This document shows positions 15,268 to 20,000 of a stretch of 20,000 nt of DNA, piece after piece (the stretch's first letter is position 1; each line of letters opens with the position of its first letter). The position numbers and the translations under genes are program-made. Origin of the DNA: an uncultured virus (IMG/VR IMGVR_UViG_3300037488_003116). Its lineage: Duplodnaviria; Heunggongvirae; Uroviricota; Caudoviricetes. The notes under the pieces are model-generated. The model did no database searches. It was given only the letters and a program-made list of their open reading frames with translations, and was not told the origin of the DNA. The DNA is taken from IMG/VR virus record IMGVR_UViG_3300037488_003116; one strand, written 5' to 3'.

Positions 15268-15285
15268 TTAGCTCCGGGTAAGCAT
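15268..15285 (-). CDS. Candidate micro-ORF MLTRS
   Basis: AACCCTAACCACGGAGG-4 nt-ATG CTT ACC CGG AGC TAA. Confidence 0.45.
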   Translation of the reverse strand: MLTRS

Positions 15286-16870: not shown

Positions 16871-16925
16871 AGGGGACCCCCCATGACTGAGTCATGGGGA
16901 CGCACCGGGCTTAACCCCTCCCGGT
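16871..16925. repeat. 55-bp double-hairpin direct repeat, copy 2
   Basis: AGGGGACCCCCCATGACT(G/C)AGTCATGGGGACGCACCGGGCTTAACCCCTCCCGGT. Confidence 0.97.
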
Positions 16926-16933
16926 AATGGTAA

Positions 16934-17341
16934 CTATTGCATGCGGTCTAGCATCTTGGCGTATGCCGTCACCGTCCTATCATATTTTTTTGCCTCATAC
17001 GTGTATGCGTAATTGGCTGGGTCACTCTTGGCCAAGTATTCATACAGAGTACATTTTGCCTGGGCCAATTCCTTAATCGCCCGATAATACGTGGCCTTAT
17101 TAAGGGGTTCGAGTTGCCCCCGAAGCTTTTCACACCGAGCCCGGGCCTGGATCACATGACCCTTAAGGATAAATAAGGAGTCTGTCTTCTCAAGCTCCGC
17201 CGATATTGAATCGGTCAGAGCAATGGTTTGTATGACCCCGCCGACATCGACCTGAGTCAGAGCTGGGACCTGGGCATGGGACACGACTGAAAACAGGACG
17301 GCCATCAGAAACAGAGCTATAATCACTGAGAAATTTCGCAT
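16934..17341 (-). CDS. Secreted protein with Sec signal peptide (135 aa)
   Basis: AGGAG SD before ATG 17341; MRNFSVIIALFLMAVLFSVVSHA-QV signal peptide. Confidence 0.8.
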   Translation of the reverse strand: MRNFSVIIALFLMAVLFSVVSHAQVPALTQVDVGGVIQTIALTDSISAELEKTDSLFILKGHVIQARARCEKLRGQLEPLNKATYYRAIKELAQAKCTLYEYLAKSDPANYAYTYEAKKYDRTVTAYAKMLDRMQ

Positions 17342-17473
17342 AGGATCGATCTCCTGAGAGGGTTGGGTGAAAGAGTTAGGGGGAAGGAAAGAGTGGTTGT
17401 TAGCGCCCTTCCCCCTGGTTTGTGTGAATTTATATCCTACTGTATTCTTTACGTCCCCAATAGGCAATGGTCT

Positions 17474-17515
17474 TCACGAGCCATCCAGGGACGGACTACT
17501 GAAGAAATGTATCAT
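17474..17515 (-). CDS. Candidate micro-ORF MIHFFSSPSLDGS
   Basis: GGAG-6 nt-ATG ... TGA. Confidence 0.35.
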   Translation of the reverse strand: MIHFFSSPSLDGS

Positions 17516-17572
17516 AAATTTCTCCGGTATGGCTATGGAAGGAACTTGAATGCGCTAGTCCCTTCCTGATGA

Positions 17573-17706
17573 GATGACTGTTTATTACCGTCATACGGAT
17601 TGTGGCAGTCATCATACCACACCTGTGTATGCCACAGGATTCGCTGGGCTATGTTCTGGATGTGGTGCCCAGCCCCACATCCAGCAGGTCCCGTATATTT
17701 ACGTCC
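17573..17706 (-). ncRNA. Predicted structured RNA element A (two tandem pseudoknots)
   Basis: Complementary pairs 17656-65/17675-84 with 17643-49/17667-73; 17601-07/17630-36 with 17573-78/17608-13. Confidence 0.55.
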
Positions 17707-17731
17707 TACGGGTTACTGACAACCTATCGGC

Positions 17732-17767
17732 TCAGTATGACGAGGACGACCTACCGGTTTTGTTCAT
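17732..17767 (-). CDS. Candidate micro-ORF MNKTGRSSSSY
   Basis: AAGGAGGT-4 nt-ATG ... TGA. Confidence 0.45.
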   Translation of the reverse strand: MNKTGRSSSSY

Positions 17768-17795
17768 GTCTAACCTCCTTCATGGGTTAGCGGGG

Positions 17796-17891
17796 TTACG
17801 ATTTGGTCGTTTTGCGCTTGGCCCGTTTCTTGGGCCGCTGACGATGTCGCAGGACACCGTCCGATGACTCGTAGTCAGAGGGGCGATGCAT
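17796..17891 (-). CDS. Basic 31-aa peptide MHRPSDYESSDGVLRHRQRPKKRAKRKTTKS
   Basis: GGAGGT SD + ATG. Confidence 0.5.
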   Translation of the reverse strand: MHRPSDYESSDGVLRHRQRPKKRAKRKTTKS

Positions 17892-18003
17892 AGGATACCT
17901 CCGGATAGTGGTTTATGGAAAAGCCAATGTAGGGTACGCTCCCTAAATCAAGGATGTCTCCTTGACTCGGCTCAGGACATTCGGGTTCAAAACAATCTGG
18001 CAT
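17875..18003 (-). CDS. Small acidic protein (42 aa)
   Basis: AAGGAG SD before ATG 18003 (MPDCFEPECPEP...). Confidence 0.5.
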   Translation of the reverse strand: MPDCFEPECPEPSQGDILDLGSVPYIGFSINHYPEVSYASPL

Positions 18004-18061
18004 CTGTTCTCCTTGGCTAAGGTTGAAGGAAAACCCACTGGCCTTATCAGTGGGCATAGAG

Positions 18062-18631
18062 TCAGGACGTAAGAGCCATGATGGCCTTATAATCCTTTTT
18101 GTCGTCGGCAGAGTCCGGCCCGTCTAGGGGCTGGAGCTCTAGGATAGAATCAAGAGGAAGGGTCATGGCCTGCCCATCCTTGAAAGTCGTCGGTTTGAAT
18201 ACCAGTGGTAGCCCACATATGGGGCATTTTTTTCCCTCGGTTCCGGTCACGTCTAAATGAAAAGGGCATGTCCATTCCCCCTCGACTGGGAGCCAACGAG
18301 ACACCTCCGCCTTACTCAAGGTTTTTGCTTCATCAAATATCCCGTCATCACCCATAGGTGCAAACGAGGATTTTCCGAAGCCGTAGCCGTGAGCTATGGC
18401 GCACAGCAGATAGAGCCGGGGTGTAGTGCCCTTCTTGGCCACTACTGATTGCGTGCTGGTGAAGGCCCACCAGGTCGGGGTGGCATCCATGACCTCTGTG
18501 GTCACGGAGTACTTGCTGGTCTTCAGGAGCATCGGCCATGGTGCTCCTTTGATCGTTTTTACGGTCTTCTCTGTCATGATCGAGAAAACCGTACCCGCTT
18601 TAAGAACGGGCACGATATGAGATACGTCCAT
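18062..18631 (-). CDS. Hypothetical protein with an internal heavy-metal-binding (HMBD-like) motif
   Basis: AAGGAG SD; WTCPFHLDVTGTEGKKCPICGLPLV resembles YTCPMHP...PGKCPxCGMxL. Confidence 0.8.
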   Translation of the reverse strand: MDVSHIVPVLKAGTVFSIMTEKTVKTIKGAPWPMLLKTSKYSVTTEVMDATPTWWAFTSTQSVVAKKGTTPRLYLLCAIAHGYGFGKSSFAPMGDDGIFDEAKTLSKAEVSRWLPVEGEWTCPFHLDVTGTEGKKCPICGLPLVFKPTTFKDGQAMTLPLDSILELQPLDGPDSADDKKDYKAIMALTS

Positions 18632-18644
18632 ATTTTCTCCTTTT

Positions 18645-18955
18645 GCCCGTACGTGGGCCTCATGGCGGGCATCGGTGGATTCTTATCCACACTACAGCCC
18701 GCGACGGTCACGAGTCAACATTGACCCGTGACTGCCCGCACCTAAGCCGGGTGCGGTTCGGCAGGGGCGGTATGTTTAAGGTCCCCCACATTGGGACCAG
18801 TCGTGCCACCCTCATCTTACCCCTGCATTGGGGTGGCTCGGACATACCTGCCGTATGTCAGGGCGAGCACCTCGGATACTCCATACGCCCGGTGCCCACG
18901 TATGGAGAATTAACGTCCCCGGAAACCCTGCTTAGGTTGTCTCGGTTGGGACATA
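18645..18955 (-). ncRNA. Predicted structured RNA element B (about 310 nt; two pseudoknots plus several hairpins)
   Basis: Almost every segment has a complement, e.g. 18879-87/18899-907 with 18865-71/18891-97, and 18805-11/18831-37 with 18761-67/18820-26. Confidence 0.6.
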
Positions 18956-19145
18956 ATTTTATACTTACATATCACGTCCTACGGTTCGGAATGACGTCAT
19001 GCCATTCTTTTTCGAAGGATCAAACCTCCTCGGTTAGGGTTTAGTCACGTCCTTGTGACTCTTATGGGGTTTCGTACCCACGTCCCGGCGACCCGTCTTA
19101 GGTTCCGGACGTCCAGTGAGTATTACCGTCCCCACTGGCGGGACC

Positions 19146-19160
19146 TCAACACAATAACAT
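19146..19160 (-). CDS. Candidate micro-ORF MLLC
   Basis: TAAGGAGG-4 nt-ATG TTA TTG TGT TGA. Confidence 0.4.
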   Translation of the reverse strand: MLLC

Positions 19161-19205
19161 CGGCCCTCCTTAAGGTTAATGGTTAGGCCCCCGACACGGG
19201 GGCGG

Positions 19206-19424
19206 TTAGTCGTCGTCGCGGGGGGACAGACTGTCCCAGCAACGATCTTCGACCGTGTCCATATCGACGTCTTTAACCTCCTGACCGTTTTCGCTGACGG
19301 TCAGAATGTTCAGTTCCCCCGGCTCGGGGGGAGAGTCGAAACCAAAGGTAAATGGTTTCGATCCAAAGTCCACACTGAACTTGACGTCTAATATTCGCTC
19401 GTCAATAACTATTTGAGTGTGCAT
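19206..19424 (-). CDS. Small acidic phage-type protein (72 aa)
   Basis: AAGGAGG SD before ATG 19424; ...DSPPEPGELNILTV... Confidence 0.8.
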   Translation of the reverse strand: MHTQIVIDERILDVKFSVDFGSKPFTFGFDSPPEPGELNILTVSENGQEVKDVDMDTVEDRCWDSLSPRDDD

Positions 19425-19435
19425 TGTCCTCCTTT

Positions 19436-19820
19436 GCCCCACGACTTGGAACGGGGGCTGTGCATTACAGGGGAGAGCTACTCCCCTGTCCTCTGCACTG
19501 ACTGATTAGCTAACCTCAGTCAGGTTTAATGGTTTATCCGTACCGGCTCATTGCAAGAGGGGCCGGTCAGACTTGCCTGTTACGTTGTTGCTGGTTAGGT
19601 AGCCTGTCGATTTTACCCCCTCGACAGACCCCCTGCGGTCAGACCGGGAGGGACGCTCCCGGAGCTAGGCACGGGCTATCCGCATAGCCCTACTTATAAC
19701 ACCCTGCACACAAGCCATTAATTATGCAGGTTTATTGTGGGGGTTTATAGACCATATGGGTTATAGTCTCCCTTGCTTTTCGGATCAAACATAATCAGGA
19801 TAAACAAGGCAACCTGATTC
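19436..19820 (-). ncRNA. Predicted structured RNA element C (hairpin-dense, about 380 nt)
   Basis: No ORF of 60 aa or more; about nine stems including ACAGGGGA/TCCCCTGT, CTGACTGA/TCAGTCAG, ACCGGC/GCCGGT, CTGTCGA/TCGACAG, CCGGGAG/CTCCCGG, GGGCTAT/ATAGCCC, AATCAGG/CCTGATT. Confidence 0.55.
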
Positions 19821-19847
19821 TGTTCGGGTCTAATTTTTTCAGGGTGA

Positions 19848-19877
19848 TTAGACCAACACCCTTGTCATTACTTTCAT
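19848..19877 (-). CDS. Candidate micro-ORF MKVMTRVLV (an in-frame ATG at 19943 would give 31 aa)
   Basis: GAGGAGGTG-tat-ATG ... TAA. Confidence 0.45.
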   Translation of the reverse strand: MKVMTRVLV

Positions 19878-19957
19878 ATACACCTCCTCTAGGTTGTTAA
19901 AGGTTAGCACCTTAACGACCCATAGGCGGTGAATGAATGACATTCAATCCTGCTTAC

Positions 19958-19989
19958 ACTATAAAGAAAAAGTAAGTGAGTAAAGTCAA
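19958..19989 (-). promoter_or_regulatory. Possible sigma70-like promoter for the leftward transcript
   Basis: TTGACT (19989-84) and TATAGT (19963-58) in AT-rich DNA, but the spacer is 20 nt. Confidence 0.3.
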
Positions 19990-20000
19990 TTGCTTTTTCT

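Follow-up and report, generated by a model that had tools for sequence, protein, structure and literature searches.

The final 20 kb of the uncultured Caudoviricetes record IMGVR_UViG_3300037488_003116 (77,877 bp, linear, 48% complete by CheckV), a stretch of 20,000 nucleotides (nt) referred to here as the window, carry a cluster of RNA pseudoknots on the minus strand (Table 1). The pseudoknots are real features of the sequence, placed in non-coding leaders within an early gene cluster of the phage, and the locus is a real, uncatalogued and modular RNA cluster, explained in part by a known twister ribozyme. Its sequence-conserved recurring family appears to be a GUCC/GGAC...AUAC motif, which an initial annotation had seen only as the word GGACGT while proposing about six pseudoknots of two recurring architectures, a description that partly misdescribed the cluster. 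Homologue depth is poor and function is predicted; the reading we favour, at a probability of about 35%, is that the knots act in cis as end-protecting, ribosome-holding modules of an early transcript punctuated by ribozymes. Published work is cited by PubMed Central accession.

Scored as stacking sums by a custom script, and not by a full pseudoknot model, knots 1a, 1b and 2B occupy ranks 1–3 among 181 minus-strand pseudoknot candidates in the 77.9-kb contig, with 2A at rank 33. In compact geometry 1a and 1b are first and second of 57 minus-strand candidates, and the best stacking sum on that strand is −38.3 kcal/mol compared with −27.8 kcal/mol for the best of 64 plus-strand candidates. Chance does not account for the compact knots: none of 100 dinucleotide shuffles of 17400-19950 attained the best, top-3 or top-6 compact scores. 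In loose geometry the best single score was attained in 4 of 60 shuffles and the top-3 sum in none of 60. Nested folding of the three non-coding blocks gave z-scores of −3.9, −4.0 and −4.3, and the minus strand outfolded the plus strand by 12, 5 and 9 kcal/mol. G-U wobbles had been offered as evidence for the minus strand; this evidence is thin, amounting to one wobble in the stems of 1a, 1b, 1c and 2B. Gene orientation (the window's plausible genes are encoded on the minus strand) and the twister fix the strand better.

Type 1 is a generic compact H-type scaffold, with no sequence core common to 1a, 1b and 1c; every pair in the stems of 1a is Watson–Crick. It resembles the stable CPK-1 scaffold, in which stem 2 has 6–7 bp, loop 1 has 1–2 nt and there is no inter-stem loop (PMC3835772). 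The stem-2 and loop-1 dimensions of 1a (7 bp, 1 nt), 1b (7 bp, 1 nt) and 1c (6 bp, 1 nt) all fall in this range; the inter-stem loop measures 0 nt in 1c, 1 nt in 1a and 2–3 nt in 1b. Knots 1a and 1b further differ from CPK-1 pseudoknots, exemplified by the T2/T4 gene 32 operator, in their stem 1 of 9–10 bp and in sharing no sequence with them, and the likeness is one of scaffold, implying no function. The word TGGGCACC, reported previously from both type-1 copies, is indeed present in each, but in different registers and roles, covering stem 2, the junction and stem 1 in 1a, and loop 1 and stem 2 in 1b.

Type 2 is heterogeneous in the arrangement of its loops: the stems of 2A are not separated by a loop and its loop 1 contains a hairpin, those of 2B are separated by 7–8 nt, and in 2C the linker precedes the hairpin. 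The notion of two recurring architectures is thus valid for type 1 only, the type-2 copies differing in loop and hairpin placement. Both stems of 2A contest positions 17607-17606. The loop-3 hairpin of 2B (18798-18780) and its linker form a member of the GUCC/GGAC...AUAC motif. Five of the six or so annotated pseudoknots were confirmed on the minus strand where they had been placed, but the sixth (19567-19490, our 2C) is weak and overlaps the twister. Its second-stem duplex is bulged (−7.9 kcal/mol), and its 3′ strand (19497-19490) coincides with the opening 8 nt of the Twister-P5 match; the second stem of 2C and the twister fold are therefore mutually exclusive. The twister accounts for only these last 8 nt of the sixth element. 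Upstream of 2C, at 19630-19557 on the minus strand, lies a further strong pseudoknot candidate with a 10-bp stem (rank 7 of 181), which overlaps the first stem of 2C.

The recurrence of GGACGT in the initial annotation is real: eight copies lie on the minus strand within 17456-19114, compared with a mean of 0.6 and a maximum of 5 in 1000 shuffles. In most of them GGAC is the 3′ stem strand that pairs an upstream GUCC, and is followed by a U-A-A-type run and, 4–11 nt on, by AUAC. A descriptor of this motif found five sites in 17400-19200 (1c, M3, the 2B hairpin, M1 and M5) compared with one in the other 76 kb of the minus strand, and a related descriptor found five sites against a shuffle mean of 0.12 and a maximum of 2 in 1000, figures that overstate significance because both descriptors were built from these very sites. 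Three of the five copies (1c, M1 and M5) fold as full pseudoknots. Between M1 and M5, the only two sequences in this paralogue comparison, a U-A pair of stem 1 becomes C-G, while second stems and hairpins are unrelated in sequence yet paired; MAFFT returned no structural alignment of the two. One GGAC (19052) sits in the hexaloop of a perfect hairpin at 19068-19040, and a degenerate motif copy (18979) at 18990-18970, also on the minus strand, has 11 nt in common with M1.

Outside this phage, a strict motif pattern gave two viral matches and none in genomes; both were treated as chance, with an unconvincing second stem. A relaxed pattern gave 120 viral loci from 52 of the 64 collection parts, which fell into 59 clusters. 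About 30 of these loci are one sequence group, rejected for a weak and distant second stem, and two others were rejected as members for lacking a loop-1 hairpin (L129) or for a weak stem (L030). Among the 59 unrelated clusters, which share the stem-1 words, three have a second stem of −10 kcal/mol or lower, and a strong second stem and hairpin occur together in two, compared with two of two here (M1 and M5). AUAC was present in 2 of 77 distinct controls. One locus (L032, 442-385, minus strand), just past a stop codon in an unrelated 28-kb phage contig, has all the motif features; it is single-copy in its own record, and Rfam gave no match over threshold and no ribozyme in the surrounding 20 kb, so it is only a possible member.

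The evidence supports an uncatalogued, modular structured RNA in a phage, but not the single new family with two architectures that had been proposed. Against Rfam 15, the best score for types 1, 2A, 2B and the motif was 17.8 bits compared with thresholds of 33–69, and 17380-17900 and 18600-19250 matched no model even at an E-value of 10. Hatchet, twister-sister and twister-P3 models had no match in the contig at an E-value of 10, the rest of the contig gave no match over threshold, and the absence of tRNA and tmRNA claimed earlier was upheld. Hammerhead ribozymes, permuted and pseudoknotted forms included, place CUGAnGA and GAAA blocks beside their stems (PMC10085705); in eight elements neither block was found, and a one-mismatch CUGAnGA was found in four. 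The helix order of 2B is similar to that of pistol (RF02679), but 2B is without the pistol core words. The layout of ribozymes like that of hepatitis delta virus (HDV) has a P3 hairpin with L3 between the P2 and P1 strands. Knots 2A, 2B and 2C leave 0–8 nt for P3 and L3 and there was no RF02682 match; an L3-like word in M1 is not accompanied by an HDV P3. The motif elements lack the cores of the hammerhead, pistol, twister, HDV, hatchet and twister-sister ribozymes. A literature search, with most subscription papers outside its reach, found no description of the GUCC/GGAC...AUAC motif, and four motif words were unmatched in the part of the supplements searched of a catalogue of 10,000 candidate viral RNAs (PMC10690425). 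A close parallel is with RAGATH-type motifs, structured RNAs found near twister or hammerhead ribozymes and the genes associated with these (PMC11061315). The elements here are likewise uncharacterised structured RNA, situated at phage gene junctions no more than a few kb from twister- and pistol-type ribozymes; they differ in being coupled to minigenes and in having no Rfam 15 match.

The initial annotation had recognised no ribozyme consensus, which did not survive the Rfam search: within the annotated region a Twister-P5 match exceeds its gathering score and predicts a self-cleaving ribozyme; a 72-amino-acid (aa) open reading frame has its start codon (AUG 19424) 16 nt downstream. Further downstream are two pistol-like elements of 55 nt, which keep the pseudoknot, helices P2 and P3 and the flanking conserved words and are without P1 and the A-rich linker. 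A full pistol with P1 and the same core occurs in L007 (5693-5765, 49 bits), and L004 has the same P1-less form after a stop codon (2822-2876), with P3 changed but paired. The exact pistol-like word, searched as a DNA pattern in IMG/VR, gave no match, and pistol-pattern matches in L005 and L006 were set aside as chance. In canonical pistols, P1 disruption reduces activity (PMC4604425), so activity of the P1-less elements is uncertain. In a twister-like element with an added P3 hairpin, C replaces U before the predicted cut; its counterpart in L004 (3118-3188) is invariant except for a shorter P3. A low-complexity, C-rich stretch of L004 (1-900) contains several copies of CATGACTCA, which also forms the P3 stem of the pistol-like elements in the window. 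Ribozymes have been reported to cluster near phage genes and other ribozymes (PMC4604425).

Four of the knots lie behind short open reading frames with a Shine–Dalgarno (SD) sequence. The knots at 19862, 19144, 17748 and 17493 start at +16, +17, +20 and +23 from minigene AUGs at 19877 (9 codons), 19160 (4 codons), 17767 (11 codons) and 17515. SD pairing is strong in the first three (−11.9, −10.2 and −11.7 kcal/mol) and weak at 17515 (−6.6 kcal/mol). Intergenic SD-AUG minigenes of 4–13 codons occur also at 15285 and 15193 on the minus strand, and several share the C/A-rich leader of real genes. In contigs from three of the four runs (X2, X3 and X4), codon 2 of the M1 minigene differs at all three positions, with the AUG preserved at an unchanged spacing from the stem. 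One X4 contig carries a 4-nt insertion that frameshifts the minigene and leaves stem 1 intact, and another contig fuses an M1-type SD-AUG start directly to M5. The changed codon, the frameshift and this fusion indicate that the start site and ribosome loading, not the peptide, are what is kept.

Near relatives were found in sediment metagenomes, in which the pseudoknot blocks are ~98–99% conserved; no RNA run was among the sequencing runs listed. Over 17349-17781 an X2 contig has six substitutions and three gaps, and over 17487-17751 an X3 contig has three substitutions and one gap; X1 contigs over 18518-19447 are near-identical and uninformative. Relatives' contigs cover 2B in part, by a near-identical one, and 1b and 2C not at all. 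Among the differences listed, none falls inside 1a and single changes at 17631, 17731 and 17732 keep pairing: in 2A, one change turns G-C into G-U with the pair kept and another (17630) disrupts a terminal pair whose formation is in competition with stem 2, and two changes in the M1 hairpin keep its pairing. One X4 contig has 54 differences over 16891-17501, only two of them over 17300-17501. Two X4 contigs have M1 and then other sequence in place of 1a, which marks M1 as a separable module. In the more distant L003 and L004 (57–59% protein identity) a repeat array directly precedes the 189-aa gene, and in L004 a different gene replaces the 17.4–17.8 kb block. Module swaps among contigs, and absence from L003 and L004, indicate that the pseudoknot blocks are accessory and exchanged; this leading stretch is the phage's most variable.

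A suggested role of phage ribozymes is the processing of polycistronic transcripts into pieces of different stability (PMC6765202), and RNA is stabilised when a ribosome is bound at an SD or stalls close to the 5′ end, as in phage SP82 (PMC7509114). The mechanism we favour would join these two published ideas, ribozyme processing and SD-dependent 5′ stabilisers. An early transcript would start at the repeat array at the contig end, and the twister and pistol-like elements would cut it into pieces. Ribosomes that had initiated at a minigene and were held at a knot would shield the RNA behind them, compact knots 1a and 1b would stop exonucleases, and held ribosomes and very stable compact knots would together slow the decay of the cut pieces. 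As in the SP82 and ermC stabilisers, a strong SD lies near a predicted processed 5′ end and the peptide is irrelevant; unlike them, a pseudoknot follows and ribozymes adjoin, and the stabilising effect is predicted.

Several observations weigh against this mechanism. From the twister (19440) to the first pistol-like element (16925) the sequence has no recognisable cut site, which leaves unplaced the ends to be guarded by 1c, 1b, 2B, M1, 1a, 2A and M5. Knots 1a, 1b, 2A and 2B have no minigene of their own. No compensatory double change occurs among the orthologues, which are near-identical, in the differences listed, and their high identity could mean recent exchange, not selection. L003 and L004 lack the upstream leader, and L004 the 17.4–17.8 kb block, yet the genes next to them are retained in both.

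The missing cut site also keeps alive the main rival, itself unlikely, that the GUCC/GGAC...AUAC motif (M1, M5, 1c, partial M3 and 2B) is itself a new small self-cleaving ribozyme or processing element, with the compact knots as helpers; on that reading the motif might, with similarly low probability, supply the missing cut sites. No other part shows nucleotides conserved between paralogues that otherwise have stems of entirely different sequence. The stem-1 exchange between M1 and M5, their unrelated but paired second stems and hairpins, and the rarity of that combination in unrelated viral sequences all argue for it, as does position: gene junctions among twister- and pistol-like elements are the context of pistol's discovery (PMC4604425), and 3 of 36 RAGATH motifs turned out to be ribozymes (PMC11061315). 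Against this, the motif contains no known ribozyme core, 1c, a simple knot of two stems, offers hardly any space for an active site, the second stem is absent in two of the five copies, the descriptor enrichment is post hoc, and there is no outside family, with one possible member (L032) in 120 loci.

It is also rather doubtful that the knots are released as small stable RNAs and serve as trans-acting decoys of a host protein involved in defence or in RNA binding. In favour of this, the blocks are accessory elements, reshuffled among relatives right at the start of the early region, as might be expected of arms-race cargo, and nearly all of the 530-nt leader (19160-18632) is structured (z −3.9), beyond what end protection would need. 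No minus-strand terminators bound the elements. Mimicry of ToxI, raised by the initial annotation, was not borne out: ToxI and phage pseudo-ToxI, like the elements of this phage, are small H-type pseudoknots, and form a tandem array of 34–36-nt repeats (PMC5086642), whereas here there are no such repeats, only one 9-bp duplication, and the knots are unrelated in sequence to each other. A sponge of the CsrB/RsmY type exposes many GGA words in hairpin loops, the CsrA site being GGA in a hairpin hexaloop. This possibility was rejected: the GGA of GGAC is paired to GUCC in five of five motif copies, one of the eight GGACGU sites (19052) is in a CsrA-type hexaloop, and the contig has no CsrA gene.

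An improbable further reading is that minigene and knot form a ribosome trap that drains initiation capacity or tunes translation of the next gene. Strong SD pairing at 19877, 19160 and 17767, a minigene peptide that is not conserved, and offsets of +16 to +23, which by ribosome footprint geometry place the knot at the ribosome's leading edge, would fit such a trap. However, a handful of sites per transcript could catch few ribosomes, stem 1 is weak in 1c, M1 and M5 (5–6 bp), and no AUG precedes the knots that are strongest (1a, 1b and 2B). Frameshift stimulation of the −1 type, defined by an X XXY YYZ heptamer 6–9 nt upstream and overlapping frames, fails, with no slippery heptamer ahead of any knot. 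Least probable is that leaders and gene cassettes were duplicated and left these elements behind as decaying remnants with no present function: degenerate copies (M3 and the 18979 site), overlaps in which only one of two folds can form (the M1 flank or 1a, M3 or 1b, 2C or the twister) and absence from L003 and L004 would suit relics, but perfect knots of 17 and 16 bp with one wobble between them, attained in 0 of 100 shuffles, and divergence below that of adjoining coding sequence in one contig would not.

Table 1. Positions of the RNA elements and neighbouring features in the window
Feature	Coordinates	Strand	Details
Truncated copy of 65-bp repeat	19958..20000	-	−10-like hexamer inside; compared with relative L004
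Additional compact pseudoknot	19862-19827	-	6+8 bp; newly noted here
Type 2C	19568-19490	-	6-bp stem, 8-bp hairpin, bulged second stem
Twister-P5 match (RF02684)	19497-19440	-	41.4 bits vs gathering 37.6; model positions 1-58
Type 1c, compact; also motif member	19144-19113	-	5+6 bp; 1-nt loop 1, no inter-stem loop
M3, motif member	18953-18900	-	No good second stem; AUAC within stem 1 of 1b
Type 1b, compact	18907-18865	-	9+7 bp, one G-U; 1-nt loop 1, 2-3-nt inter-stem loop
Type 2B	18837-18761	-	7+7 bp plus 6-bp hairpin
189-aa gene, no known family	18062..18631	-	Three homologues at 57-59%; anchors relatives L003 and L004
M1, full motif pseudoknot	17748-17690	-	Loop-1 hairpin, 6-bp second stem; newly noted here
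Type 1a, compact, strongest in contig	17684-17643	-	10+7 bp; loops 1/1/6
Type 2A	17636-17573	-	6-7 + 6-7 bp; hairpins in loops 1 and 3
M5, full motif pseudoknot	17493-17436	-	Loop-1 hairpin, 7-bp second stem; outside the range first annotated
Pistol-like element, after stop codon	16925-16871	-	Model positions 23-68; 30-31 bits, below 34.5
Second pistol-like copy, after stop codon	15958-15904	-	98% identical to first
Twister-like element, added P3 hairpin	15151-15081	-	Assigned by eye; not scored by Rfam

The setting at the contig end is consistent with an early region. The 65-bp repeat, which carries an internal inverted repeat, stands in 4.6 tandem copies ahead of the first gene in L004 (its array spanning 1383-1679 there and 175-409 in L003), and the contig assembly breaks within it; because the contig ends in the repeat that precedes the first gene of L004, the pseudoknot region lies at the front of the gene cluster, which we read as the phage early region. 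The repeat is likely an early promoter array or, put more broadly, a promoter array or an origin; a sigma-70 scan did not call its −10-like hexamer at 19958-20000. At the opposite contig end are a CRISPR-like repeat array (clustered regularly interspaced short palindromic repeats) and genes for Cas7, Cas8c and Cas5d, making up a minimal type I-C locus (L010 1-3689, the contig start). The source phage is probably large. Matches of Cas8c and an AAA ATPase among described phages reach only 27%, blastn against 50,697 phage records found no relative, none was found in GTDB genomes, and protein scans of IMG/VR with the 189-aa, 172-aa and 218-aa genes, or alignments of them, found none. The 189-aa gene contains a 30-aa Cys/His zinc-ribbon-like insert (region 18114-18300) that is absent from three close homologues.

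The role of self-cleaving ribozymes in phages is an open question (PMC6765202), and here one predicted early transcript brings together a twister match, pistol-like elements without P1, a variant resembling twister, several minigenes and a five-copy motif that is uncatalogued. The modules are swappable and natural relatives without them exist, and with units of 30–80 nt, cleavage, end protection and ribosome pausing are directly testable. Pistol came from such neighbourhoods, so testing the motif as a candidate new ribozyme would cost little; should its role be limited to stabilising RNA, the motif would nonetheless represent a novel type of end-guard for phage mRNA.

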